Source: a virus
Strand: one strand, 5' to 3'
Virus record (IMG/VR): IMGVR_UViG_3300036715_001290
Coordinates: 32,001 to 96,000 of that record
DNA length: 64,000 bases
How positions within the stretch are numbered: position 1 is the first letter of the stretch; every line of letters begins with the position of its first letter. The position numbers and the translations under genes were made by a program. This document shows positions 50,038-64,000 of the stretch, in pieces. The notes under the pieces are model-generated. The model saw only the letters and a program-made list of their open reading frames with translations. It made no database searches and was not told the DNA's origin.

Positions 50038-51636
50038 ATGATTGACTGGAGACCATATTTTCCTTACGAATCTCCTCGTGAACAACAAATACAAGCATTA
50101 GATTTTATATTCAAATCATGGTTTGAAGATAAAAAGAAATTTGCTATACTTGATGCACCTACAGGTGTAGGTAAGTCGGCAATTGCAATGACTGTTGCTA
50201 ATTTTTTTAAAGATGATAGAAATAAAATTAATTCATCATTACGTGGTAGTTATGTAGTTACTACGGAAACAATTCTACAATCACAATATACAAATGAGTA
50301 CTCAGATAAACTTGCTAGCATTTGGTCTAAGAAAAGATATAAATGTGAAGGTAGAGGTGGTGTGACTTGTGATGTTGGTACTATTGTTAATAAGATGACA
50401 GGTGGTATATTTTGTAAATGTCAATATCTAAAAGATAAAGAAAGTTTTATTAAAAGTGATATATCACTAACCAATATGACATTTTTATTAAATCAATTTG
50501 AACATGGTAAAGCAAAGTTTGATACTATTAATCGTAATTGTATGATTATAGATGAAGCTCATAATGCAGAACGTATTATGACTGATTTTGCTACAATAGA
50601 ATTAAGTAAATATTATTTAGAATCTCATAATATAGCTTGGATAGTAAATAATAAACTTGATTATGATAAATTGATTGAATGGGCTCGTGATGTTGTATTT
50701 AAGAAATTAGCAATTAAAAAAGTTGCTATGAATGAACGTCTTGAGAGTTATGCAAAATTAAAAACAAATGTTGAAAATAATGCATCATATAAAAAACTTA
50801 TGGATGATTATATTAATATTGATAAGTTTGTATGTCATTTAGGAATGTTTTTCAAATTGTATGAAAAAAACAAATGGGTATTTTATACAAATGAAGACCA
50901 AACAAGTATATTCTTTAAACCATTATTTTCAAATGAGTTCATGAATATGCTTTATGATAAAGGTGAAAAAATATTATTAATGTCGGCAACTATTTTAGAT
51001 GATAAAATATTTACAAAAGCAAATGGTATTACTAATTATACATATATGACATTAACTTCACCATTTCCTAAAGAAAATAGACCTATACATCATTTAGATT
51101 GTGGTCAATTAAATATGAAGTCAATTTCTAAAACAATGCCTACAATAATTAGTACTATTGAATCATTATTAAGTTTACCTGAACATGCAAATCAAAAAGG
51201 TATTATTCATTGTAATTCATATTTAATATCAAAAGCAATTCAAGCAGGTGTTAAAAATAGACGTTTAATATTTCATAAAACTAGTGATAGAGCAGAAGCA
51301 TTAAAGAAACATCTATTAAGTGATGGTCCTACCGTTTTGGTATCACCATCATTAACCGAAGGTTTGGATTTGATTGATGATTTATCAAGATTTCAGATTA
51401 TAGTAAAAGTACCATTTCCATACTTAGGAGATCATTATATAAAAGCAAAAATGAATCTTATTGATGATTGGTACCAATGGCAAACTGTTAAATGTATAGT
51501 TCAATCTTCAGGACGTAGTGTAAGATCTGAAACTGATTATGCAACTACATATATTTTAGATGGTGATTTTAAGTGGTTTTATAAAAAAAATATTAGTATG
51601 TTCCCACTTTGGTGGAGAGAGGCATTAACAATTTAA
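50038..51636 (+). CDS. DinG/XPD-family SF2 helicase
   Basis: Q motif PREQQ, APTGVGKS, Cys cluster, DEAH, MSAT, EGLD, QSSGRSVR...DY. Confidence 0.88.
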   Translation: MIDWRPYFPYESPREQQIQALDFIFKSWFEDKKKFAILDAPTGVGKSAIAMTVANFFKDDRNKINSSLRGSYVVTTETILQSQYTNEYSDKLASIWSKKRYKCEGRGGVTCDVGTIVNKMTGGIFCKCQYLKDKESFIKSDISLTNMTFLLNQFEHGKAKFDTINRNCMIIDEAHNAERIMTDFATIELSKYYLESHNIAWIVNNKLDYDKLIEWARDVVFKKLAIKKVAMNERLESYAKLKTNVENNASYKKLMDDYINIDKFVCHLGMFFKLYEKNKWVFYTNEDQTSIFFKPLFSNEFMNMLYDKGEKILLMSATILDDKIFTKANGITNYTYMTLTSPFPKENRPIHHLDCGQLNMKSISKTMPTIISTIESLLSLPEHANQKGIIHCNSYLISKAIQAGVKNRRLIFHKTSDRAEALKKHLLSDGPTVLVSPSLTEGLDLIDDLSRFQIIVKVPFPYLGDHYIKAKMNLIDDWYQWQTVKCIVQSSGRSVRSETDYATTYILDGDFKWFYKKNISMFPLWWREALTI

Positions 51637-52814
51637 TGGAAAAAATATCATTCATTATAAGTAATTATAATACTGTTAATTATACTGCATTTTGTTATAA
51701 TAGCATTAGAGAAAATTTAGGATATGAACATGAAGTTGTATTAATTTCTGATGGTTCAACAGATGCTACTGAATTATATTTACAACAAATAAAAGAAGTA
51801 GACCCAAATGTTATAATTCATATAAATCAAAAAGAATCAATAGGTATAGCTCATTCATATAATATGGGTGTAAAATTAGCAACAAATGAAATTGTTTGTA
51901 TATTACATTCTGATATGTATGTTCCTAAAGGATTTGATGAAACTGTATTAAAATATTTAGGAACAAAATATGATTTCATTACTACGTATAGATGCGAACC
52001 ACCACTTTATGGTGAATCTATGGATAAGCATTTAGCATATTATGGTAATGATATTGAATCATTTATGAAAAATGATTATGATAAATGGAATGCAGATTTA
52101 TCAAAACGTGAAGGACAAACTCAAGCAAGAATGTGTTTTCCATTTATAACAACAAAAACTACATATTGGTCAGTTGGTGGTAATGATACATTATTTCTAA
52201 AATATATGGTTGATGATGATGATTTCTATTTAAGATTGGTTATGAATGAAGTAAGATATGCCCAAATAATGGATACTTCAGTTTATCATTTTTGTAGTAG
52301 GTCAACTAAATTCAAAGATGGTGTAAGTAATGAAGGTAGTTTAGAATGGAATACACAATATCAAAAATCAACACGTAATTTTATTAGAAAGTGGGGATAT
52401 TCCCAAGGATCCATTTATAATAATAAAATGGATATAGTTCCAATACCTACATATAATACTCATTTAATTTGTATGTCATTAACTTTAGAACAACTTGGTG
52501 CCGTTGAACCGTGGTTTAGATTTATTACATGTAATAAAGATATATATGATGAATATGTTAAATTGGAACAAAATAATACATTAATTAATTTAGATTCTAA
52601 ATTTACAACAGATGTATCAAATTCCGATGTATTAGTTGAGATTGAAAATCTAAATCCAGAAATGTTTAAGGTTTTTAATGTATTACAAAAAGTTATTTTC
52701 AATACCAAAATAGGTAAGCATAATATTAATGAGTTTGGTATTTTATTAACTATAAAAAATAAGATAGATCTTTCTGAGTCATTAATAGTCAATGATAGAT
52801 TATATCATTGTTGA
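51636..52814 (+). CDS. Glycosyltransferase family 2
   Basis: ISFIISNYN, ISDGSTD, N.GV..A, LHSD, GG.D..F....DDDD; start probably ATG 51636. Confidence 0.88.
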   Translation: MEKISFIISNYNTVNYTAFCYNSIRENLGYEHEVVLISDGSTDATELYLQQIKEVDPNVIIHINQKESIGIAHSYNMGVKLATNEIVCILHSDMYVPKGFDETVLKYLGTKYDFITTYRCEPPLYGESMDKHLAYYGNDIESFMKNDYDKWNADLSKREGQTQARMCFPFITTKTTYWSVGGNDTLFLKYMVDDDDFYLRLVMNEVRYAQIMDTSVYHFCSRSTKFKDGVSNEGSLEWNTQYQKSTRNFIRKWGYSQGSIYNNKMDIVPIPTYNTHLICMSLTLEQLGAVEPWFRFITCNKDIYDEYVKLEQNNTLINLDSKFTTDVSNSDVLVEIENLNPEMFKVFNVLQKVIFNTKIGKHNINEFGILLTIKNKIDLSESLIVNDRLYHC

Positions 52815-52862: not shown

Positions 52863-55412
52863 ATGTATCAAAATATATATTACGATTATAAAACTAATAC
52901 AATGCATTTGTGGGATGATGAACAAGGCTACAAATCATTTAGATATAATCGTAAAGCATACATCCCAACTGATGATATGGATTCAAAATACATATCTATG
53001 TATGGTGATAGGTTAGATGAAATAATATTAAAAAAAGGAACTCAAGGAAATGATGAAATTAAGTTATTTGGTTCTGACTTAAAACCAGAAAATCAAGTAC
53101 TTATTGATTTATATTTGGATTTAGATACAAATGTTTTAGCTAAACATAAAGTAGTTTGTTTTGATATTGAAGTAGATACTACTTATACATTTCCAAAACC
53201 AGAGGATGCAAATAATACAATTATATCAGTAGCAAAATTTGATTATGTTACTAATAAGCATACATGTTATGTATTAGATCCTACAGGAACCTTAAGTGAT
53301 GAAGATGGTTATCAAACATTAAATGATAAACAATATGCAGCATCTATTAGGATTTTTGATAATGAAGTAGATTTAATGGCTGCATTTATTAATGAATTAG
53401 ATGCTACAATATTAACAGGTTGGTTTATTGATGAGTTTGATATTCCATATATAATAAATCGGCTATATAAAATAGCTCCTGAATTAGTTCCTCTTTTATC
53501 GCCTATTAAAAAGGTTGAGTATAAAGAATATCAAAAGAAATATGTAATTGCAGGTATATCGGTACTTGATTATTTAAGTCTTTATAAAAAGTTTACATTC
53601 TCACAAGAACCATCATATAGATTAGATTATATTGCTAAAAAAGAATTAGGTGTTGGTAAAGTTGAATATGAAGGAAGATTATCTGATTTATATAGAACCG
53701 ATATTAAGAAATTCATTAAATATAACATTACAGATAATCAACGTGTAGTTGATATTGATAAAAAAGTAAAGTTTATAGATAATACAATAGCAATTGCTCA
53801 AAAAGGTAAAATTCCATATGAAGATATTCATTCATCATCAAGATATATTGATGGTGCAATCATATCTTATCTTAAAAAGAAAAATATTATAGTAACAAAT
53901 AAACCAGAAAAAGATTTTTCAGCATCAACTGATAAATTTGAAGGTGCTCTTGTAAAGATGCCTATGGTTGGTTTATTTGAATGGATTTATGATTTAGATT
54001 TAACATCTCTTTATCCTTCAATTATTATGACATTAAATATTTCACCTGAAACTAAATTAATGAAAATTGAAAATTGGGATCATGTTAAATATGCAAGTGG
54101 TGAATCTCATATATGGAATGTTTATCATTTTGTTAAACAAAAATCGGCTCTTATACCTAATAATACATTAAAGGAATTGTTTTTATCTAAAGGATATCAT
54201 ATTTCTACAAATGGTATTGTGTATGAAAATAAGAATGTACGAAAAGGTATTATACCTGAAATTTTGGAAGTTTGGTTTACCGAACGTATTAAGTATAAAA
54301 ACCTAATGAAGAAATTTGCAAAAGAAGGCAATGCTGAAATGTATGACTTCTATGATAAATTACAATATGTACAAAAAGTACTACTTAATACCGTGTATGG
54401 TGTTTTAGGTATGCGCGGATTTAGATTTTATGATTTGGATAATGCAGTTGCTGTTACTAAAACAGGTCAACATATTATTATGTGGTCCCAGTTAAAAGGT
54501 AATGAATATAAAAATATAAAATTGAAAACAATAGATAAAGATTATTGCATCTATTCTGATACTGATTCTGCATTTTTTACGGCAGCTGATTTTGTTAAGG
54601 GTTTATCTGAAGAAGAAGCATTACAAAAAGTAATGAAAGTTTCAGATGCAACTCAAAAATATATAAATGATTCTTATAATGAATTTTGTTTAGAGTATAT
54701 GAATACATCTACTCATAGAATAGAAATTAAAAAAGAACTTATATGTCGTAGAGGTTTCTGGGAAGGTACTAAAAAACGTTATGGTCTAAAGGTTATAATC
54801 AGGGAAGGTATACCTGAAGAAAAATATATCTTTAAAGGTATAGAAATTGTTAAGTCATCATTTCCACCTGCATTCAAAACTGCATTGGAATTAGCGGCAA
54901 GATCTATATTAGATGGTGTTGATAAAAAAGATGTTGATAAAATTATATTAGATTTGGAAGATGGTATTGAGGGTTATGAAGCTAAAACATTAGCAAAGGT
55001 AACATCAATTACAGATATAAAAAAATATTGTAAAAACCCAAATGCACGTAATATTTATTATAAATCAATTTTATCAAATATTAATAAAGGTACTCCTGCA
55101 CACGTAAGAGCATCTATCTATTATAATAATTTAATGGATCATTTTGGTATTACTAATATTCCACATATTGGTAATGATGAAAAAGTAAAGTGGGTTTATC
55201 TAAAGGATAATCCATTGAAGTTACAGAATTTAGCATTTCGTGGTTATGATGACCCTCAAGAAATATTAGACTTTATTGAAACATTTTGTGATAAACAAAG
55301 AATGTATGAATCAGAAATGAAAACAAAAGTTGTTTCTATTTATCATGCATTAGGTTGGCGGCTACCAAATAAAAATAGCGAACAATTAGAATCATTTTTC
55401 AAATTCGATTAA
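52863..55412 (+). CDS. Family B DNA polymerase (gp43-like)
   Basis: FDIEV ExoI, FDIPY ExoII, YNITD ExoIII, DLTSLYPSII, K..LN..YG, YSDTDS, KKRY. Confidence 0.97.
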   Translation: MYQNIYYDYKTNTMHLWDDEQGYKSFRYNRKAYIPTDDMDSKYISMYGDRLDEIILKKGTQGNDEIKLFGSDLKPENQVLIDLYLDLDTNVLAKHKVVCFDIEVDTTYTFPKPEDANNTIISVAKFDYVTNKHTCYVLDPTGTLSDEDGYQTLNDKQYAASIRIFDNEVDLMAAFINELDATILTGWFIDEFDIPYIINRLYKIAPELVPLLSPIKKVEYKEYQKKYVIAGISVLDYLSLYKKFTFSQEPSYRLDYIAKKELGVGKVEYEGRLSDLYRTDIKKFIKYNITDNQRVVDIDKKVKFIDNTIAIAQKGKIPYEDIHSSSRYIDGAIISYLKKKNIIVTNKPEKDFSASTDKFEGALVKMPMVGLFEWIYDLDLTSLYPSIIMTLNISPETKLMKIENWDHVKYASGESHIWNVYHFVKQKSALIPNNTLKELFLSKGYHISTNGIVYENKNVRKGIIPEILEVWFTERIKYKNLMKKFAKEGNAEMYDFYDKLQYVQKVLLNTVYGVLGMRGFRFYDLDNAVAVTKTGQHIIMWSQLKGNEYKNIKLKTIDKDYCIYSDTDSAFFTAADFVKGLSEEEALQKVMKVSDATQKYINDSYNEFCLEYMNTSTHRIEIKKELICRRGFWEGTKKRYGLKVIIREGIPEEKYIFKGIEIVKSSFPPAFKTALELAARSILDGVDKKDVDKIILDLEDGIEGYEAKTLAKVTSITDIKKYCKNPNARNIYYKSILSNINKGTPAHVRASIYYNNLMDHFGITNIPHIGNDEKVKWVYLKDNPLKLQNLAFRGYDDPQEILDFIETFCDKQRMYESEMKTKVVSIYHALGWRLPNKNSEQLESFFKFD

Positions 55413-55431: not shown

Positions 55432-56217
55432 ATGAGTGATACTGCAGTAAAAACAGTAATAAGTAAAAAAGTTATTTCTTCATTTATGGAGAAATATAAT
55501 TTAATTAAAGAAGAAACCGATGCCGCAATTTGGTTGATTGAGAAGAACTCAATATCAACTAAATTTAGAACGGCCGCAGGAGATTTCTTTGGTCAAGTAA
55601 AATTTGATGATGTTGAGGATTTCGTTGATATTGAAGAATCAATTCAACTTCCAGTTTATGAATCATCGGAATTACAAAAATACATCAATGTATTAGGTGA
55701 TCATATTGATACGCAAATTATAACAAATGAAGATAATGTTGCATTCAAATTGAAAATGTCGGATGACAGTGGAAGTGTTGCATATACACTTGCTGACATG
55801 GCTGTTTTCACTAAAAAGACAATGAGTAAAGATGGTCAAATCAAATATGATTTTACATTTAACATTACACCTGAATTTAGAGCAAAGTTTCTAAATGCAT
55901 TAAATGCTATTGGTGAAACAAATCAACAAGGTTTGGCTAATAAATTTGTCATTAGCTCTAATGGTGATACTCGAGTATTAAAGTTTATCACAAATAATAA
56001 TGTTATATCTATTAACATTTTAGAAAATGATGTTGATGTTGATGGAACCGTTAATGCATATTTTAGAGCCGATTATCTTAAAAAGATTTTATCTGTTAAT
56101 AAAAACGCAACCGTTTTATTTTCAATTAAAGCTGGAAAATTTGCTGAAGTTGAATGTACCGATATTTTTGAAAATGTTACTATAACAAACAATTACTTTT
56201 TAACACAGGTAGTATAA
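55432..56217 (+). CDS. Sliding clamp (gp45-like)
   Basis: Size, alternating beta/alpha character, and position between polymerase and clamp loader. Confidence 0.65.
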   Translation: MSDTAVKTVISKKVISSFMEKYNLIKEETDAAIWLIEKNSISTKFRTAAGDFFGQVKFDDVEDFVDIEESIQLPVYESSELQKYINVLGDHIDTQIITNEDNVAFKLKMSDDSGSVAYTLADMAVFTKKTMSKDGQIKYDFTFNITPEFRAKFLNALNAIGETNQQGLANKFVISSNGDTRVLKFITNNNVISINILENDVDVDGTVNAYFRADYLKKILSVNKNATVLFSIKAGKFAEVECTDIFENVTITNNYFLTQVV

Positions 56218-56220
56218 TAA

Positions 56221-57153
56221 ATGGATGTACTTAACAAAGTATGGTTCGAGAAATATAGACCTAAGACATTAGATGAATTGATATTAAATGATGATATTCG
56301 TGAAAGACTTCAAAGTTTAATTGATAAGGATGAAATACAACATCTATTATTATTTGGTACTGCGGGAATAGGTAAAACTACTCTCGCAAAAATATTAGTT
56401 AATACGTTAAATTGTTCATATCTATATATTAATGCATCTGATGAAAATGGTGTAGATACTATTAGATATAAAATAAAATCATTTGTTTCAACCTATAGTG
56501 AAAATAAATTCAAAATAGTTATATTAGATGAAGCTGATTTTCTTACAATACAATTTCAAGCAATTTTACGTCCAGTAATGGAGGAATTTTCCGATGTTGC
56601 TAGATTTATTTTAACCTGTAATTATGAAGAAAGAATTATAGAACCTATTCGTTCAAGATGTACATCGATACAATTGAGTAGTTATTCTATTGTTGATGCC
56701 GCTAAATATATTATTAAAATACTTGATGCCGAAAATATTAAATATGATTTGAAAGACATTAAACCAATTATTACATCATATTTTCCAGATATGAGAAAGA
56801 TTGTTAATGAAATAGAATCACATTCTATTAATGGTGTATTTAAGTTACCTTCCGAAACGACAATGACATCTACATATGTAGAATCAATATTTGGTATACT
56901 TAAACGTAAAACAACAAATATAAATAAAGATTATGCAGAGATTAGAACTATTGTTGATGAAAATAAAATCAAAATATTTAATCCATTGTATACACAATTA
57001 TTCAAAAATATCAGTACATTATTTAACTCTGATATTGTACCTGATGCTATATTAGCAATTGCAGAATCACAATTTCAAGATACTTTAGTTTTTGATAAAG
57101 AGATTACTTTTATTGCATGTATAATAAAACTATTAACTATTAAAAAAGGATAA
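56221..57153 (+). CDS. Clamp loader AAA+ subunit (gp44 / RFC-small-like)
   Basis: WFEKYRP, G.AGIGKTT, NASDE.G, ILDEAD, SRC. Confidence 0.95.
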   Translation: MDVLNKVWFEKYRPKTLDELILNDDIRERLQSLIDKDEIQHLLLFGTAGIGKTTLAKILVNTLNCSYLYINASDENGVDTIRYKIKSFVSTYSENKFKIVILDEADFLTIQFQAILRPVMEEFSDVARFILTCNYEERIIEPIRSRCTSIQLSSYSIVDAAKYIIKILDAENIKYDLKDIKPIITSYFPDMRKIVNEIESHSINGVFKLPSETTMTSTYVESIFGILKRKTTNINKDYAEIRTIVDENKIKIFNPLYTQLFKNISTLFNSDIVPDAILAIAESQFQDTLVFDKEITFIACIIKLLTIKKG

Positions 57154-57156
57154 GTC

Positions 57157-57432
57157 ATGGGCCAACCAACTAAAATAAACCAACCTAAAATAGATCTTAA
57201 TTCATTAGAAACAATGGAATGTGAAGCATGTGGAGGAAGACTTTGGTCTGAATTATCATATATGAAAATTGTACCTGCCTTATTATCTAATACTGGTAAA
57301 CCTGGGTTAGTTCCAATCCCAGTTGTTGCATGTGCAAATTGTCTTCATGTTAATGAAACATTTAATCCAATTAAAGTAATTACCGTTGAACATGAAATGC
57401 CTGCACCACAATCAAGCCTATTAGTAAAATAA
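57157..57432 (+). CDS. Small Zn-ribbon protein
   Basis: CEACG...CANC. Confidence 0.65.
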   Translation: MGQPTKINQPKIDLNSLETMECEACGGRLWSELSYMKIVPALLSNTGKPGLVPIPVVACANCLHVNETFNPIKVITVEHEMPAPQSSLLVK

Positions 57433-57433
57433 T

Positions 57434-57865
57434 ATGACAAATAAATCGGTTGATTTGTTTTGGTTCTTATCACAAATTCTTAAGGATAAGAACCAAAATA
57501 TTTTTGATGAATTATCGGATGTTGATAAAAATAAATGGTCTACATTTATGATAGATAAATATCTATCAATGGACCCAATGTATACTATATTAATTTCGGA
57601 TTTTTCAAGATACTCATTGTCATTACCACGTGAAATTGTATATAAGTTTTATTCAAATTTAATACCAAAAAGAACAAATACCTTTATTAGATATATAAAA
57701 GGCTCAAAGAAAACACAAACACATTCTCCTGAATTTATTGAGAAATTACAAGCTATGTATGAGTGTTCAAAAAAAGATGCTTTACAATATGCAAATCTTT
57801 TTAGTAAAGATGAAGAAGCCGCATATATGTTAAAATTTGGTATTATTAAAAAGAAAGAAAAATAA
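57434..57865 (+). CDS. Clamp loader small subunit (gp62-like)
   Basis: FMI.KYLSM, Y.F....IPK.....YIK, Y.CS...A.QY. Confidence 0.7.
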   Translation: MTNKSVDLFWFLSQILKDKNQNIFDELSDVDKNKWSTFMIDKYLSMDPMYTILISDFSRYSLSLPREIVYKFYSNLIPKRTNTFIRYIKGSKKTQTHSPEFIEKLQAMYECSKKDALQYANLFSKDEEAAYMLKFGIIKKKEK

Positions 57866-58092
57866 TGTTTGGTTCTTTTGCTAAAACCTTTGATGCATAT
57901 GTTGAATATTGTAAAGCCAATAATATACCATTACCTAAGGTTAAATTAGTTAAACAAGATGATGTAACACCACAAAAGTTATCACCACCTGTTTGTTTAG
58001 TATATTATTTAGATTTTAAGTATAAAGGTAAATCAATGACAATAAATAATGAACAAAAATTTGATGATGAAAATAGTATAAAACAAATGTAA
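57865..58092 (+). CDS. Hypothetical protein
   Basis: TAATG-coupled ORF. Confidence 0.45.
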   Translation: MFGSFAKTFDAYVEYCKANNIPLPKVKLVKQDDVTPQKLSPPVCLVYYLDFKYKGKSMTINNEQKFDDENSIKQM

Positions 58093-58128
58093 GCACTATT
58101 TATACATAACAACATAAAGGAATTATAA

Positions 58129-59289
58129 ATGAAAACACAATTATGTATCGGCCCTATGAGTGACGAACTAATATTAGTTGCTGATAAACTTAGCAAAAAA
58201 TATGAAATTGATATTCCACTTATAGCAAGTAGAAATCAAGTTGATTATGATAATGGGTATGTATGTACTACATTAGAATTAAATGATAAATTAAACAAAT
58301 TAGATAATTCACATTTAAAGATGTGTAGAGATCATGCAGGTCCATTCTTAAAACAATCTGATAAAGGATTGAATATAATGGATGCAATGTCAGAAGTAAT
58401 GAAAACTATATTCAATGATATCATTAATGGTTTTACAACTATTCATATAGATCCTTCAGTAGGAACAAATATGTATGGAGAAGCAACATATGACCAATAT
58501 AATTTATTTAATGATGATAGTATTAATTATGGTTTAGAACCTAAACAAGCTGTTAATGTTATAATATCCAGAAGTAGATATCTTTTTGAATATGCTCAGA
58601 GTATTGCAAAATCATATAAAGTCGTATTAAATTATGAATTTGGTACTGAAGAACAAAATGGTAATTTACAAGATATTGAATTAATGAATTATTTTTTAAG
58701 TAAAATTAAAAATATATTTCGTGAAAATTTATCAGATTGGCCTGTTAATGATATTCATATAGTTTGTCAAACCGGAACATTAGTAAGTGGTGTTAGTAAT
58801 ATTGGTAAATATCCAACATTTACACAACATGAAAAGAGCGAATTACAGGATGTAATAAATTTAATTCATGCATACGGTTTTAAAGTAAAGGAACATAACT
58901 TAGATTATTTACCTGAGTATCTTTTACATGAACGTCATGAATTATGTATTGATGCAAGTAATGTTGCTCCAGAATTTGGTGTAACACAAACAAGAACATT
59001 ATTAAATTTATTTGGTAAGAATACTCAATTTATGGATTGTGTAACGGAATTAGTAAATAAAACAAACATGTGGAAAAAATGGTTACCTGCTGATGCAAAT
59101 GATATACAAAAGATTGAGGCTGCTTTACATTATGATTTTACAAATCCACAATTAAAATCATTATTAACAAAATTAAGTAAATCAACACCAAATTATTCTG
59201 AATATATTCAACATGATTTAGAAGTTGTTATGAACAAATATTTACATGCATTTAATCTAATTGAAAGCGATTTATGGAAAATAAAGTAA
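58129..59289 (+). CDS. GatZ/KbaZ-like TIM-barrel sugar-phosphate epimerase/aldolase
   Basis: ASRNQVD, RDHAGP, IHIDPS, YEFGTEE, V.QTGT, KEHNLDY, NVAPEFG. Confidence 0.75.
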   Translation: MKTQLCIGPMSDELILVADKLSKKYEIDIPLIASRNQVDYDNGYVCTTLELNDKLNKLDNSHLKMCRDHAGPFLKQSDKGLNIMDAMSEVMKTIFNDIINGFTTIHIDPSVGTNMYGEATYDQYNLFNDDSINYGLEPKQAVNVIISRSRYLFEYAQSIAKSYKVVLNYEFGTEEQNGNLQDIELMNYFLSKIKNIFRENLSDWPVNDIHIVCQTGTLVSGVSNIGKYPTFTQHEKSELQDVINLIHAYGFKVKEHNLDYLPEYLLHERHELCIDASNVAPEFGVTQTRTLLNLFGKNTQFMDCVTELVNKTNMWKKWLPADANDIQKIEAALHYDFTNPQLKSLLTKLSKSTPNYSEYIQHDLEVVMNKYLHAFNLIESDLWKIK

Positions 59290-59726
59290 TTGATAAACCT
59301 TGGGGTAGTGAAGAACTCTTATCATTAAATGATAAGTATTGTATGAAATTATTAAAGATGAATCCTGATGAAAGATGTTCATTACAATATCATCAACATA
59401 AACATGAAACTGTATATTGTATTAGTGGTATATTAATTGTATCACATGTACCTAACTTTGATGCAAATGATCTTAACAATACCATTACTATGTGGAATGA
59501 TGTTTTAAGTGGTAAGTTAAATAAAATTGTTGAATTATACCCAGGTGATTATATTGTTATTCCAGTTGGTATGATTCATCAAATGATAGTACCTGCTGAC
59601 CAACAACAAGCAACACAATATCTTGAAGCATCTACACCTGAGCTTGATGATGTAATTCGTTTGAAAGATGCTTATGGTAGAATTACTGATGATTTATTTA
59701 TTCCTTATTCAAATGAAAGAATTTAA
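59274..59726 (+). CDS. Cupin, mannose-6-phosphate isomerase type II-like
   Basis: KPWGSE, SLQYHQHKHET, PGD...IP.G.IH, EASTPELDDVIR..D.YGR. Confidence 0.85.
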   Translation: MENKVIDKPWGSEELLSLNDKYCMKLLKMNPDERCSLQYHQHKHETVYCISGILIVSHVPNFDANDLNNTITMWNDVLSGKLNKIVELYPGDYIVIPVGMIHQMIVPADQQQATQYLEASTPELDDVIRLKDAYGRITDDLFIPYSNERI

Positions 59727-59727
59727 T

Positions 59728-61470
59728 ATGAAATTTGAACACAAAGAACCTGTACGTTTGAATGTATTAATACCTTGTGCAGGTATAGGTAGTAGATTAT
59801 TAGATGAATCAAAAGCTATTAATAAAACATTAGTAACCGTTGGTTGTAAACCTGTATTATCACATATCATAGATACGTTAGAGTATACTCATACAAAAAT
59901 TACATATATTTTTGTGTTAGGATATAAAGGTGATTTAGTAAAACAATTTGTAGAAACTGTTTATCCAAATATTAATGCAAAGTTTGTATGGGTAAATAAA
60001 TATGAAGGAGAAGGTTCTGGATTAGGTGCATCAATTTTGGCAGCTAAATCAATATTACAAATACCATTAAATAATAGTAAAGGTGATGCAATATCACAAC
60101 CATTTTTATTTATTCCTAATGATGGTATATTTGATGAAAATGTTTTATCTTCAATAGTATCAAATGATCATTCATTTAGTTCACATGCGGTACTTGCATC
60201 ATATAATGTAATATTTACAGCGGCTGAACCTATCAATAATAAAAATAACCAATATAGAACAATTACCGATAAGCGTGGTTATGTTACAAATGTTGGACCA
60301 AAATCTGATACATTAGGAAAACCATATACCGGTATTTGTTATATTAAGGATGCATCTGTGTTTTGGTCATATATGGACAAATCAAAACAATGTATTGAAA
60401 CTGGTGAAGTTTATGCTATTAAAAAAATGATTAATGATTCAAACATAAAATTCTGTAAAAAGGAAATTGAATGGTATGACACTGGTAATCCTGAATCTTT
60501 ATTAAATGCAAGAGAGAAATTTGCAATTAAAGATGCAAATATATTACCTAAAGATGGTGAAGCAATTTGGTTTCCAGATCCTACACCGCTTGGTAAAGAA
60601 GAAGTTGTAAAATTTCATTTAGATACTGATTTTATTTCAAATAGAGTTAAGAGATCTAAATTGTTTGAAGATACTAATATGATACCAAAAATTAAAAGAT
60701 CTTCTGCTAATTTTTATGTATATGATAAAATAAAAGGTAAAGTATTTTCAGAAAAATTAAACTTATCAAATTTCAAAAAGTTAATATATAATTTAGATTC
60801 TTTTTGGAAAAATCCTTATGGGTTTACAATAAAATCTAAATGTAATGAAGCATTAAAAGATTTTTATAAAAATAAAACATATGATAGAGTTGACCAATTT
60901 TTCAATAGACATGAAATATTTGATGGTATTGATATTATTAATGGTGAAACTGTAGGTCCTATAAAAGAATTATTGGACAATGTTGATTGGAAATCATTTT
61001 ATGATAATAAAGTAATTGGAAATTTCCACGGAGATTTACATTTTGAAAATATTATTATGACTGAAGATAATGGATTTTATCTAATTGATATGAGACAAAA
61101 ATTCTCAGATATAACTGCTAATATCGATGTTACATCGGCAATGCTAGGTGATATCACATATGACTTAGCTAAGTTAAAACATGGTATGATTATAGGTCAT
61201 CATATGGTTGTTACTAATGGATTTGAAATAACAATTAATAAAAATACAGTCGACTTTTTTTACAAAAGAGACAGTCGATTAGTTGAAATTGAAAATGCAT
61301 TTGATAATTATATATTAAACAACTACGGTAAACAAATGTTAATTAATGTAAATATATTAACTGCATTAATATATCTTAACATTGCAACATTACACCACAA
61401 TCCTTATAGTTTATTCTTATTTTATTTAGGCAAATATATGCTGCATCAGTTGATGAATAATGCTTCTTGA
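59728..61470 (+). CDS. Fusion of an NTP-sugar transferase and an APH/choline-kinase-like phosphotransferase
   Basis: IPCAGIGSRL...K.L and WYDTG (nucleotidyltransferase); HGDLHFENI and LID (kinase). Confidence 0.85.
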   Translation: MKFEHKEPVRLNVLIPCAGIGSRLLDESKAINKTLVTVGCKPVLSHIIDTLEYTHTKITYIFVLGYKGDLVKQFVETVYPNINAKFVWVNKYEGEGSGLGASILAAKSILQIPLNNSKGDAISQPFLFIPNDGIFDENVLSSIVSNDHSFSSHAVLASYNVIFTAAEPINNKNNQYRTITDKRGYVTNVGPKSDTLGKPYTGICYIKDASVFWSYMDKSKQCIETGEVYAIKKMINDSNIKFCKKEIEWYDTGNPESLLNAREKFAIKDANILPKDGEAIWFPDPTPLGKEEVVKFHLDTDFISNRVKRSKLFEDTNMIPKIKRSSANFYVYDKIKGKVFSEKLNLSNFKKLIYNLDSFWKNPYGFTIKSKCNEALKDFYKNKTYDRVDQFFNRHEIFDGIDIINGETVGPIKELLDNVDWKSFYDNKVIGNFHGDLHFENIIMTEDNGFYLIDMRQKFSDITANIDVTSAMLGDITYDLAKLKHGMIIGHHMVVTNGFEITINKNTVDFFYKRDSRLVEIENAFDNYILNNYGKQMLINVNILTALIYLNIATLHHNPYSLFLFYLGKYMLHQLMNNAS

Positions 61471-62326
61471 TTATTGGAATTTAGGTCAAGGTTTAACCAA
61501 ACCAATAAAATTAGAAGATTTTAAGATGACGTCTTCTATAAGAAAAAGATATGCAACTACATTTATAAATAAAGATTATTTTGAATTAATAACAAAAGAA
61601 AGTATTGAAAAAATGACAGAACAAAAAAACAATGATAATATGAATGCAACTTCGGTTAATGCTAGCAATGTTGTATATGTTGATAATAAAAATTATGATA
61701 TGAAAGATAATATAAAAATAGATATAAAGGAAGTTGATTATAGATCGCGAGCTACATTTGATTTTTTCAAATGTCGTAAAGTTAAATCTCCATCAATAGG
61801 TACCCGTGGTTCAGCAGGTATTGATTTTTATGTACCTGAATTTACAGAAGATTTCAAACAATATGTAAAAGAACATAATACCGATAGGAATTATATTTTT
61901 CATGAAAAAGGTGATGGTGGTAATATTGTATTTTTTGAAGAAGGTGTTAATATGGATTTTAATGCAGAAGATGCAATATGTCTAAAACCACATTCTTCAA
62001 TTGTTATACCAACAGGTATTCATGTATTATTTCCAGAATCATTAGTTTTGGTTGCATTTAATAAAAGTGGTATTTCAACTAAAAAGAAATTAGTTACTGG
62101 TGCTTGTGTTTGTGATTCTGATTATCGCGGTGAAATTCATTTCAATATGATTAATACATCTAATACTTATCAGTTAATTAGACCTAATGAAAAATTGTTA
62201 CAATTTGTTTTATTGCAATATTTTGTTCCGGATTTTGCGGAAGCCAATTCATATGATGAATTATATTGTAATTTGAAACAAACTAGATTTGGTGGATTTG
62301 GTTCAACCAATGAGGAATCAAAATAA
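61460..62326 (+). CDS. dut: Trimeric dUTPase with an N-terminal extension
   Basis: SAGIDF, IPTGI, KSG, DSDYRGEI, GGFGST. Confidence 0.9.
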   Translation: MLLDYWNLGQGLTKPIKLEDFKMTSSIRKRYATTFINKDYFELITKESIEKMTEQKNNDNMNATSVNASNVVYVDNKNYDMKDNIKIDIKEVDYRSRATFDFFKCRKVKSPSIGTRGSAGIDFYVPEFTEDFKQYVKEHNTDRNYIFHEKGDGGNIVFFEEGVNMDFNAEDAICLKPHSSIVIPTGIHVLFPESLVLVAFNKSGISTKKKLVTGACVCDSDYRGEIHFNMINTSNTYQLIRPNEKLLQFVLLQYFVPDFAEANSYDELYCNLKQTRFGGFGSTNEESK

Positions 62327-62427
62327 AGCACTGACACTGCTATCAATATCATAAAAGATATGATATTATCAAAAACGGTAATTTTTAGTAAAAATAAAAT
62401 TGAAAAAATAGAAAGATATTGTGAATT

Positions 62428-63027
62428 ATGATAATCATTGTAGAAGGTCAAGACAGAGTGGGTAAGACGACCCAAATAGAATTACTACGAAATAGTTATG
62501 TACATTCATCACCTGTTGTAAAATATTCAAAAATAAAACCAAAATATAAACATAATCCTGAACATATATTTGAAAAATCAAAATTATTATATGAAGAAAT
62601 GTTTAATATGATATTTGATTCTGCTGCTGATGAAAGAGATCTTATATTAGATAGAGCTCATCTTGGTGAGTATGTATATTCAAAAAGATATCGTTCATAT
62701 TCAGGTAAATATGTTTTTGATTTAGAAAAACAATTTGTTAATGATGTTGATTTATGGGTAGATAATATATATCTTATAATATTAATTAATTCGGATCTTG
62801 AAGAATTGTATAAAAGAGATGATTGTCTTTCTCATAGTAATGCAATTGAGGCTATGGCAACTGATAAGATTAGATTTATGAAAGCATATAAAAAATCAAC
62901 AATTCCAAATAAATGTATTATTGATTGTAACGGATTAACATCTGATGTTGTACATAAAAAAATATTAGAGTTCTTAAAGCTTAAACCTATAGTTGAAGAA
63001 AAAATGTCAGATTATGAATACGAATAA
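62428..63027 (+). CDS. Thymidylate-kinase-like dNMP kinase
   Basis: IIVEGQDRVGKTT, ILDRAHLGEYVY...YR. Confidence 0.85.
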   Translation: MIIIVEGQDRVGKTTQIELLRNSYVHSSPVVKYSKIKPKYKHNPEHIFEKSKLLYEEMFNMIFDSAADERDLILDRAHLGEYVYSKRYRSYSGKYVFDLEKQFVNDVDLWVDNIYLIILINSDLEELYKRDDCLSHSNAIEAMATDKIRFMKAYKKSTIPNKCIIDCNGLTSDVVHKKILEFLKLKPIVEEKMSDYEYE

Positions 63028-63568
63028 TATAAAAACATTAGTATTAGATGTTGATGGTGTATTTACTGATGGTACATTTACATATTCAGCTGAAGGTAAA
63101 ATACAAAAAGTATTTGGACCTGATGATACCGATGCAATGAAAATAGCATCTAAGTTTTTTACTATACATATATTTTCTGCGGATCATCGTGGGTTTGATA
63201 TTACTAAGAAACGTTTTGATGATGTTGGATTTGGTAATTGTTTATTCAATGTACAAGGTGGAGCTAATAGAGCTAGATATTTAATAAAACATTATGGTGA
63301 TTTATCATCCGTTGCTTATGTAGGTGATTCATTCTCAGATTTACCTGCATTATCAGTTGTTGGATATCCATTTATGATGGACTGTCTAAAAAATGATATT
63401 AAGAGTTCCCTACATGATATAAAAGAAAATATGTCTTGGTTTTATAATGCTCCCTCATTATTTCCAAAAACATTAATTGGTGGACAAAGAGCAGTCTCAA
63501 AGATTATCAATGAAATATTGGTACATCAGTATGATACGTCACTATACGACGAAATAATGAATAATTAG
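63014..63568 (+). CDS. KdsC-like HAD phosphatase
   Basis: LDVDGVFTDG, K.F...D, AYVGDSFSD, GG..AV. Confidence 0.85.
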   Translation: MNTNNIKTLVLDVDGVFTDGTFTYSAEGKIQKVFGPDDTDAMKIASKFFTIHIFSADHRGFDITKKRFDDVGFGNCLFNVQGGANRARYLIKHYGDLSSVAYVGDSFSDLPALSVVGYPFMMDCLKNDIKSSLHDIKENMSWFYNAPSLFPKTLIGGQRAVSKIINEILVHQYDTSLYDEIMNN

Positions 63569-63651
63569 AAGCCCGTGGAAGCGTTCTAATGACATCGAAT
63601 TAACGGACCGAACAAATATACGGTCCATTTATTACACAAAATATAACAAAA

Positions 63652-64000
63652 ATGAATATTGCAATAGGAAAAATAGGTAAAAGTATAATATTTGATTCCA
63701 CCAAGTGGGGTTTAATAGGTGGCGATGAAATGGCACCAATATTATATTCATTCTTAGCTGAGAAATATCCACAACATAAATTTTACATATTAGGTCAAAC
63801 TGATATAGATTATGTTAGACCAAAGGCAGCTTTAGGAAAACATCAAACATCAAGGGCTGGAAAAACATATACTTTTGAATATCCAAAATTACCTGATAAT
63901 TTAATTAGTGTAGAATCTATGATTGATAAAAGTGTATTACCAACTGCTAAAGAACGCGCCGCTGGAGATCCAACAAATGATCCTGCATTTCAACATAGAT
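63652..64000 (+). CDS. 3'-truncated ORF, possible GT-B glycosyltransferase (MNIAIGKIGKSIIFDSTKWGLIGGDEMAPILYSFLAEKYPQHKFYILG...)
   Basis: Open from ATG 63652 to the window end; beta-strand/GG/helix/beta-strand start typical of GT-B folds; context. Confidence 0.45.
   Translation, partial: MNIAIGKIGKSIIFDSTKWGLIGGDEMAPILYSFLAEKYPQHKFYILGQTDIDYVRPKAALGKHQTSRAGKTYTFEYPKLPDNLISVESMIDKSVLPTAKERAAGDPTNDPAFQHR

Follow-up and report, generated by a model that had tools for sequence, protein, structure and literature searches.

What does a phage do with a sugar-nucleotide pathway set among its deoxynucleotide enzymes, close behind the clamp-loader genes? The question is raised by a 64,000-base stretch of an uncultured T4-like phage (here the window: bases 32001–96000 of one 140,489-base IMG/VR virus record, IMGVR_UViG_3300036715_001290, which is ~70% complete and has 28% G+C). 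A first-pass annotation, made from the letters alone, had listed a GatZ/KbaZ-like epimerase, a cupin isomerase, a nucleotidyltransferase/kinase fusion, a dUTPase, a dNMP kinase, a KdsC-like phosphatase and a possible GT-B protein, and all of these genes are present on the plus strand, tightly packed in that place. The window holds the first two thirds of the 9.4-kb block to which they belong, and we give a probability of about 0.68 to the reading that this block puts glycosylated 5-hydroxymethylcytosine (hmC, or 5hmC) into the phage DNA with a sugar donor made by the phage itself. The reading is built on what the genes encode, on their catalytic motifs and fold matches, and on their co-occurrence, synteny and place in a tree; from these we infer all substrates, the order of kinase and phosphatase, the nucleotide carrier, the sugar and hmC DNA as the acceptor. 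The donor probably carries neither glucose nor arabinose but a rare sugar. We would class the cluster as a variant form of phage cytosine glycosylation, one whose route to the sugar has yet to be reported for modified DNA. Co-occurrence was counted in 80 viral and 80 bacterial loci with a GatZ-like gene, and in 80 IMG/VR loci with a relative of p437, the GT-B protein of the block.

The base is predicted from a thymidylate synthase (TS) homologue. The first-pass annotation had suggested looking downstream for a TS-like hydroxymethylase, and a gp42-type dCMP hydroxymethylase indeed lies ~2.4 kb past the window end, with residues 23–245 matching residues 13–231 of the T4 enzyme (phmmer, PDB 1b49; E 4.1e-53). 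It keeps the catalytic Cys (T4 Cys148; DFICT versus DFMCT in T4) and has Asp at the position of ThyA Asn177 (T4 Asp179; FFNDFAW versus FRNDYAW in T4), where Asp sets cytosine specificity (PMC8670742, PMC13326640). Asp also stands at the ThyA-169 position (MRSND), whereas 5-hydroxy-dCMP synthases of the RB69 gp48 / DLP3 gp80 type have Asn there (D169N; PMC13326640) and the enzyme of the arabinosylation cluster of Morganella phage Rgz1 reads MRSQN. Because the TS homologue carries Asp at both ThyA-169 and the Asn177-equivalent position, the base is predicted to be 5hmC; 5-hydroxycytosine was rejected, as the residue at ThyA-169 is Asp and not Asn. The hmC signature (MRSND..ND / DFICT) is kept in all 31 gp42-type homologues of the p437 loci, and a canonical ThyA has Asn. 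The gp42-type enzyme is the sole TS homologue in the ~70%-complete record, in which a search for ThyX found none.

The candidate transferase is p437. Its AlphaFold2 model (pLDDT 88) adopts a GT-B fold of two Rossmann domains, as the first-pass annotation had thought possible, and the top Foldseek matches are structures of T4 beta-glucosyltransferase (BGT; 1qkj, 1bgt; E 5e-8). In VIA-align, four T4 BGT entries rank first (Z 21.6–20.8, 311–319 residues aligned, 18–19% identity), among them 1j39 (Z 21.6, root mean square deviation 3.8, 316 residues aligned), followed by generic GT4 enzymes (Z ≤19.4), the glycosyltransferase of phage HY126 (17) and T4 AGT (16.3). Alignment of the p437 family profile with T4 b-gt by hhalign gave a probability of 81% (E 1.2e-5), for the C-terminal domain only. 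No Pfam family matched p437 at E 0.01, and its 69 homologues are either without names or called just "hypothetical protein". In the p437 loci, a C5-cytosine methyltransferase-like gene (C5MT-like) follows downstream in 77/80, a gp42-type gene is a neighbour in 54/80 and a dCMP deaminase gene in 36/80. The gene order in nearer relatives is gene 42-like ... p437 – C5MT – uvsX – gene 41-like, and that of T4 is 42 – b-gt – segA – uvsX – 40 – 41; because of this slot between gene 42 and uvsX in relatives, p437 is the positional counterpart of b-gt. By genomic context, that is by this slot and the gp42-type neighbours, p437 is a candidate for the transfer of a sugar to 5hmC in duplex DNA.

Relatives of p437 also occur elsewhere. 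One is found in Enterococcus Denvervirus phages, in a cluster of kinase, TS-hydroxymethylase, dUTPase and glycosyltransferase genes, and the pair of p437 and C5MT recurs in Pseudoalteromonas phage vB_Psh_XG4. Enterococcus phage Planchet (locus L169, 45289–60407) has the order nucleotide kinase – TS/hydroxymethylase – dUTPase – PNK – GT – p437-like GT – RNase H – GT; as Planchet is a Firmicutes siphovirus, the BGT-like family is not confined to T4-like phages. A 363-residue protein encoded next after GatZ in numerous phage cassettes was tried as a further relative and rejected (hhalign probability 0.3%).

The C5MT-like protein matches PF00145 with an E-value of 8e-22, the match beginning at profile position 41. 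Across 19 homologues, motifs IV (PC), VI (ENA), VIII (QxRxR), IX and X are kept, as PCAGLS, GENAP, QRRPR and QNVP, and motif I (canonically FxGxG, for binding of S-adenosylmethionine, SAM) appears throughout as the variant [IV]PLIGG. Members of the family that stand without p437 are found in the S-TIM5 group of cyanophages and in Bacillus phage G. Modelling p437 and the C5MT-like protein as a complex yielded neither support nor a verdict, and we give it no weight in either direction.

The sugar arm begins with the GatZ-like protein, whose assignment at first stood on a match to PF08013 of 17.5 bits (E 1.7e-3), under the gathering cut-off of 26.7. It has since gained firmer ground: 1720 homologues were collected, many of them with PF08013, hhalign against E. 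coli GatZ gives a probability of 96% (E 2.6e-9), and the top Foldseek matches of its AlphaFold2 model (pLDDT 79) are the GatZ-family structures 3txv and 2fiq. A phmmer search of PDB sequences gave zero matches. The proposed Zn ligands His88, Glu171 and His257 and the catalytic Asp87 of GatZ (PMC11907403) align with H69, E174, H256 and D68, respectively, residues that vary little or not at all in a set of 22 homologues. The family-specific Glu44 of GatZ is not kept, an invariant Ile32 standing there in the GatZ-like subfamily; Cys20 and Lys279 of GatZ lie beyond the aligned range, and the subfamily, at ~380 residues, is ~40 residues shorter than GatZ. By sequence, then, the protein reads as a divergent member of the wider PF08013 / IPR012062 family. 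C4-epimerisation between fructose-6-phosphate and tagatose-6-phosphate is the only activity demonstrated for GatZ/KbaZ proteins (PMC11907403), and the same fold is, by Foldseek, also common to class II aldolases and to uronate and tagatose epimerases.

The next gene encodes a cupin whose sequence places it with the type II phosphomannose isomerases (PMI): it matches PF01050 with 33.4 bits (gathering cut-off 23.6) as well as TIGR01479 GMP_PMI, and both metal motifs are readable (SLQYHQHKHE for HxH..E, PVGMIH for PxGxxH). A search of PDB sequences returned marginal JmjC and quercetinase matches only. The fusion protein behind it probably starts at the ATG at 59728, in a 600-codon frame open from 59668. 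Its nucleotidyltransferase (NT) domain matches TIGR03992 (E 3e-12) and glucose-1-phosphate cytidylyltransferases over residues 33–285 and reads CAGIGSRL at the GxGSRL motif; its C-terminal domain carries HGDLHFEN, the HGDxxxxN signature of APH/choline-kinase-like kinases. This kinase domain shares the signature, a downstream Asp and 27% identity over 175 residues (E 3e-11) with gp39 of phage Rgz1, which sits in an arabinose-5-phosphate isomerase / HAD / TS-homologue cluster of RB69 type and on account of that cluster is taken as an AfhE homologue. The NT/kinase thus appears to be a distant homologue of AfhE, in keeping with the likeness to arabinosylating phages remarked on in the first-pass annotation. 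Arabinose phosphate is an unlikely substrate for it, because the block has no SIS arabinose-5-phosphate isomerase and its front end differs. The HAD phosphatase, open from a TTG at 62993 with a likely ATG at 63014, has the DxDG nucleophile motif (DVDGV) and matches TIGR01670 (E 3e-11; 43 bits against a cut-off of 107) and the KDN-9-phosphate phosphatase model (E 7e-10), as expected of a relative rather than an equivalog of KdsC/YrbI. It has no homology to the HAD of the Rgz1 cluster. The sugar genes end 83 bases before p437 and are interleaved with the genes for the dUTPase and the dNMP kinase.

Of these two nucleotide enzymes, the dUTPase-family protein matches PF00692 (E 3e-12), TIGR00576 (E 2e-19) and phrog_135, and dUTPases of the PDB match it at residues 160–288 only. 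Its N-terminal ~160 residues (61460–61940) have no match to a solved structure or to Pfam, yet fall inside the phrog_135 profile. That it might act as a dCTPase is conjecture. The thymidylate-kinase-like (TMK-like) protein matches PF02223 (E 1.5e-7), TIGR00041 and phrog_761 and is found in 5/80 p437 loci; comparable clusters of DLP3, RB69 and RL38J1 also contain TMK-like kinases (PMC13326640, Table 1).

Together, these enzymes suggest the following scheme. The gp42-type enzyme would convert dCMP to 5hm-dCMP, the TMK-like kinase would phosphorylate this product for polymerisation, and the polymerase would place hmC in DNA, while the dUTPase-family protein and dCMP deaminase would trim competing dUTP and dCMP pools and feed dTMP synthesis. 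On the sugar side, where the logic is modelled on the AfhE/AfhF arabinose route of isomerase, kinase to bisphosphate, HAD phosphatase and nucleotidyltransferase (PMC13326640) and on the GmhA/HldE/GmhB heptose pathway, the GatZ-like enzyme would epimerise a ketose phosphate at C4, most simply fructose-6-phosphate to tagatose-6-phosphate. The cupin would turn this into an aldose-6-phosphate, by analogy with mannose the 2,3-cis aldose talose-6-phosphate, although galactose-6-phosphate is possible; a talo- or galacto-hexose is accordingly the sugar predicted by analogy. The kinase domain would then add the anomeric phosphate at C1, the KdsC-type HAD would take off the terminal phosphate, the NT domain would form the nucleoside diphosphate sugar (NDP-sugar), and p437 would move the sugar onto hmC in replicated DNA.

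The block behaves as one unit. At least 8 IMG/VR relatives with the same synteny have, immediately after the clamp loader, the genes for a PD-(D/E)XK nuclease, GT4, GT4 and GT2, which in this phage are placed after the block. None of these relatives has a TS homologue or p437 at this site, a 113-kb contig lacks both throughout, and one syntenic relative contig has a canonical-looking ThyA elsewhere. As the block is wholly absent between clamp loader and nuclease in relatives, it represents an insertion of ~9.4 kb, from 58129 to ~67516 (extrapolated; contig 90129–99516). Four metagenome runs, from sediment and microbial mats, contain the stretch. A span of 17 kb around the block is covered with zero differences by two 37-kb Logan contigs, and both ends are bridged by Logan contigs from the other two runs as well. 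The contiguity is therefore reproduced in four runs and is no assembly chimera. A 75-residue open reading frame (57865–58092) directly precedes the block, and one of 128 residues (L001:9518–9904, minus strand) stands at its end.

Glycosyltransferase genes outside the block, namely the plus-strand GT2 before the polymerase and the downstream GT4/GT4/GT2 set, probably belong to a separate system, judging by their distribution. An extension of the DNA glycan by these enzymes, comparable to the second and third arabinosyltransferases of DLP3, was set aside, as relatives keep them without the hmC block. The first-pass proposal of DNA glycosylation with a phage-made NDP-sugar is thus supported by computation, except for its inclusion of the GT2 before the polymerase.

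The surroundings are those of T4-like replication genes. The polymerase has its nearest cultured relative in Microcystis phage Mel-JY01, at only 39% identity, and blastn found no match for the stretch among 50,697 phage records. A 261-residue open reading frame (55432–56217) without Pfam matches occupies the position of the sliding clamp. A promoter and terminator scan of 57000–64000 was uninformative (51 promoter-like sites versus 63 in shuffles).

Table 1 Genes of the block and its surroundings. Positions are those of the window; L001 denotes contig positions 90000–109999, which read on past the window end.
Feature	Length (aa)	Position	Strand	Remark
SF2 helicase		50038-51636		T4-like replication gene
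GT2 before polymerase		51609-52814		PF00535, E 3e-18
Family B polymerase		52863-55412		T4-like replication gene
gp44-like clamp loader		56221-57153		T4-like replication gene
gp62-like subunit		57434-57865		T4-like replication gene
GatZ/KbaZ-like class II aldolase-fold enzyme	386	58129..59289	+	proposed ketose-phosphate C4-epimerase
PMI-type cupin	150	59274..59726	+	proposed ketose-phosphate/aldose-phosphate isomerase
Sugar-1-phosphate nucleotidyltransferase (N) + APH/choline-kinase-like sugar kinase (C)		59728..61470	+	NT/kinase fusion
dUTPase-family protein	288	61460..62326	+	trimeric dUTPase domain at residues 160-288
Thymidylate-kinase-like dNMP kinase	199	62428..63027	+	proposed 5hm-dCMP kinase
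KdsC-type HAD phosphatase		63014..63568	+	proposed terminal-phosphate phosphatase of sugar bisphosphate
p437, BGT-like GT-B glycosyltransferase	437	63652..64000 (L001:5653-6966)	+	runs 965 bases past the window
C5-cytosine methyltransferase-like protein	399	L001:6966-8165		adjoins p437 downstream, past window end
Open reading frame	71			between C5MT-like gene and gp42-type gene, past window end
gp42-type dCMP hydroxymethylase (TS homologue)	249	L001:8374-9123		past window end
dCMP deaminase		L001:9116-9517		past window end

To place the sugar genes in a wider setting, we turn to their occurrence elsewhere. The GatZ-like, cupin, NT/kinase and HAD genes are found together in 62–68/80 viral and 56–63/80 bacterial loci (the cupin with the GatZ-like gene in 62/80 and 63/80, respectively; the KdsC-type HAD with the cassette in 44–56/80), and because the same genes recur together in this way, their grouping is more than chance. 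The bacterial cassette occurs in at least 574 species, including Prochlorococcus, Pelagibacteraceae, Campylobacter concisus, Legionella and Chlorobium, in the order HAD – GatZ-like – 274-residue conserved unknown – cupin – NT/kinase – methyltransferase (loci L173–L252). Its neighbours are genes for GT2 and GT90-like transferases, a methyltransferase, an NAD-dependent epimerase, asparagine synthase, ABC and MurJ-type exporters and flippases, by which these sites are identified as surface-polysaccharide loci. In phages, the cassette is accompanied by carbamoyltransferase, radical-SAM, shikimate-dehydrogenase-like and DUF6071 genes. Large phage glycan islands (IMG/VR loci L006–L085, e.g. L009, L020, L033 and L046) have the order cupin – NT/kinase – shikimate-dehydrogenase-like – GatZ-like – carbamoyltransferase and hold paralogous unknowns (~247, 281 and 271 residues), DUF6071 and up to three radical-SAM/SPASM genes; some of these islands belong to phages of 385–452 kb that have no hmC genes. 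From its gene content and distribution, the four-gene cassette appears to be a general NDP-sugar pathway. A literature search found no published description of it, and nothing on GatZ in connection with DNA modification in phages.

A different front end is found next to p437 in sister phages. In 17/80 p437 loci, an NT/kinase gene lies directly upstream of p437, preceded by genes for a KdsC-type HAD, a SIS isomerase and an RPE-family epimerase; L088:6696–10004 and L152:6661–10004 show this arrangement as KdsC-type HAD – HxlB-like SIS – RPE/AlsE-like – NT/kinase. The SIS protein is closest to 6-phospho-3-hexuloisomerase (HxlB-like, E 1e-33), and the epimerase scores equally as ribulose-5-phosphate and as allulose-6-phosphate 3-epimerase (AlsE-like, E 5e-32), from which another sugar on hmC, possibly of the allose/altrose type or a pentose, would be predicted. 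In a maximum-likelihood tree, the NT/kinase of this phage joins the p437-linked copies (98/98), and the NT/kinases of the GatZ cassettes form a separate clade (95/87). The simplest reading of these sequences is that the back end (kinase/NT, phosphatase and transferase) was inherited within hmC phages and the front-end enzymes were exchanged, an RPE-type epimerase and SIS isomerase giving way to a GatZ-type epimerase and cupin.

Several observations weigh against glycosylated hmC made with the phage's own donor. The GatZ/cupin pair is combined with p437 or gp42 in 0/160 sampled viral loci, so its connection with hmC depends on a single genome, that of this phage. The cassette's usual home is polysaccharide synthesis, which is unrelated to hmC, and a gp42-type enzyme is lacking in two complete megaphages (452 and 385 kb) that carry the cassette. 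The NT/kinase of this phage sits on a long branch (1.85), and the support values therefore overstate the certainty of its placement. Next to p437 there is a conserved and, from its motifs, apparently active C5MT that has no role in the scheme. Full replacement of cytosine is not established, no MazG-type dCTPase having been found: searches for MazG, PRA-PH and dUTPase_2 in the ~70%-complete record found none. Moreover, a maximal-order Markov model of the whole contig shows marked avoidance of palindromes (observed/expected: GAATTC 0/49, CATG 327/593, GATC 235/419, CCGG 52/106), and avoidance of those containing C counts against the scheme because long-standing complete cytosine protection would not predict it. 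TTTAAA (69/212) and CTAG (128/220) are also avoided, GTATAC and GTAC are over-represented, and CCWGG is not avoided (27 versus 25.6 expected) and gives no hint of a Dcm-like target. This pattern points to restriction pressure, now or in the past, even though hypermodification is predicted, and it is compatible with a recent acquisition of the block, as suggested by the insertion, or with incomplete substitution.

How far do these observations favour another explanation? Two neighbouring systems might be at work, p437 glucosylating hmC from host UDP-glucose as in T4 and the cassette making an NDP-sugar for some other acceptor, such as the host envelope, the virion or the products of GT4/GT4/GT2. 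The occurrence of the cassette in bacterial surface-polysaccharide loci, and in phage islands that lack gp42 and p437 and abound in genes for carbamoyltransferases, radical-SAM proteins and unknowns, agrees with this, as do the four further glycosyltransferase genes within 12 kb; in addition, 63/80 p437 loci have no NT/kinase nearby, and many family members must therefore use a host sugar nucleotide. However, the NT/kinase groups with the p437-adjacent clade and not with the polysaccharide/megaphage clade, the sugar genes run interleaved with those for the dUTPase and dNMP kinase almost up to p437, and relatives that retain GT4/GT4/GT2 lack the entire block as a unit. We consider such a division quite unlikely. 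For the sugar cassette as such, the surface or virion glycan that the first-pass annotation named as its alternative may still apply, given the polysaccharide loci in which the cassette lies in bacteria. Less still speaks for cytosine being replaced in part or not at all, with 5-methylcytosine from the C5MT-like enzyme as the main mark and another or minor role for the gp42-like enzyme and p437. This idea draws on the retained methyltransferase motifs, the constant company of p437, the lack of a detected dCTPase and the avoidance of C-containing restriction sites, but against it stand the strictly conserved gp42-type signature and the presence in the block of a dedicated dNMP kinase and dCMP deaminase, as in T4. 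A methyltransferase needs neither a hydroxymethylase nor a BGT-like partner, and with the family-specific motif I (PLIGG) its use of SAM is putative; we regard this explanation as very improbable.

The same DNA-glycosylation system with other sugar chemistry is a better-founded possibility, though on the whole a doubtful one. Here the GatZ-like enzyme would act on a pentulose or heptulose phosphate, or as a chain-building aldolase, and the product would be a pentose, a heptose or another hexose. The breadth of the fold, shared with class II aldolases and uronate/tagatose epimerases, the replacement of Glu44 by Ile and the shorter chain leave room for this; the conserved 274-residue unknown and the methyltransferase added in bacterial cassettes hint at a possibly more complex product there, and the kinase/phosphatase/NT logic is identical for arabinose and heptose (PMC13326640). 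On the other hand, the one demonstrated GatZ/KbaZ activity is on hexulose phosphates (PMC11907403), the cupin is of the phosphohexose type, and the enzymes replaced in relatives resemble hexulose-6-phosphate enzymes. A bolder version of the hmC scheme would have the phage DNA carry a sugar never yet seen on a nucleobase (e.g. talosyl-hmC), made by a C4-epimerase/cupin route borrowed from bacterial polysaccharide synthesis, with the C5MT-fold protein as a working part of cytosine hypermodification that could set a second mark on hmC or on residual C and would be no ordinary methylase; in this full form we think it rather unlikely.

Phage DNA with glycosylated cytosines is protected from restriction enzymes and CRISPR nucleases, and the same bases determine what type IV restriction systems attack. 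The T4 hmC system comprises the gene 42 dCMP hydroxymethylase, the gene 1 dNMP kinase, the gene 56 dCTPase, the cd deaminase and the alpha- and beta-glucosyltransferases. The block resembles it in its gp42-type enzyme with the same active-site residues, the dCMP deaminase alongside, a GT-B protein that is structurally closest to BGT and in relatives fills the b-gt slot, and a location beside the polymerase and clamp-loader genes. It differs in that its sugar donor is predicted to be phage-made, whereas T4 takes UDP-glucose from the host; its kinase is TMK-like and not gp1-like, a MazG-type dCTPase was not found, p437 is 86 residues longer than BGT and 18–19% identical to it, and a C5MT-like partner is present. 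The ADP/GDP-heptose pathway consists of the GmhA isomerase, the HldE kinase/nucleotidyltransferase and the GmhB HAD phosphatase. With this pathway the predicted route would share the course from ketose phosphate through aldose phosphate, bisphosphate and aldose-1-phosphate to NDP-sugar, and a kinase/NT fusion, but the kinase is APH-like here and ribokinase-like in HldE, and the isomerase and the phosphatase subfamily are unrelated.

The arabinosyl-5-hydroxycytosine systems of RB69, DLP3, HY126 and relatives (PMC13326640) likewise have a cluster next to the polymerase, in which a bifunctional NT/kinase homologous to that of the block is joined by a TS homologue, GT-B transferases, a TMK-like kinase and, for the sugar, a ketose/aldose isomerase and a HAD phosphatase. 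In contrast to these systems, in which the base is 5-hydroxycytosine (Asn at ThyA-169), the base predicted here is of hmC type (Asp); a cupin takes the place of the SIS arabinose-5-phosphate isomerase, a GatZ-type epimerase is added, the phosphatase is KdsC-type and unrelated in sequence, and the transferase is BGT-like and not a BshA-like GT4. E. coli GatZ (PMC11907403) shares the fold and the Asp/His/Glu/His metal and catalytic set with the GatZ-like protein, whose subfamily, however, travels with cupin, NT/kinase and HAD genes and not with GatY or phosphotransferase-system (PTS) genes. Phage-made donors that we found described are arabinose on 5-hydroxycytosine and galactose or glucose on the same base, the glucose of T4 coming from the host; the block predicts a third route, in which a C4-epimerase and a cupin feed an AfhE-like kinase/NT and a BGT-like transferase acts on hmC. 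The comparison also brings out a large BGT-like family outside Pfam that is named in few records, its constant C5MT-like neighbour and a widespread four-gene NDP-sugar cassette, and the enzymes of the block could serve to label hmC with non-glucose sugars.

The closest parallel is with the sister T4-like phages (IMG/VR loci L087–L101 and L152; HAD – SIS – RPE/AlsE-like – NT/kinase – p437 – C5MT), for which no descriptive paper was found in the literature. They have an NT/kinase of the same clade, the KdsC-type HAD, the same BGT-like transferase and the C5MT-like and gp42-type genes, but an RPE TIM barrel and a SIS protein where this phage has a class II aldolase fold of GatZ type and a cupin, so that a different sugar is expected. 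This comparison suggests a general rule, by which the sugar is changed through a swap of the two front-end enzymes while the back end stays as it is.

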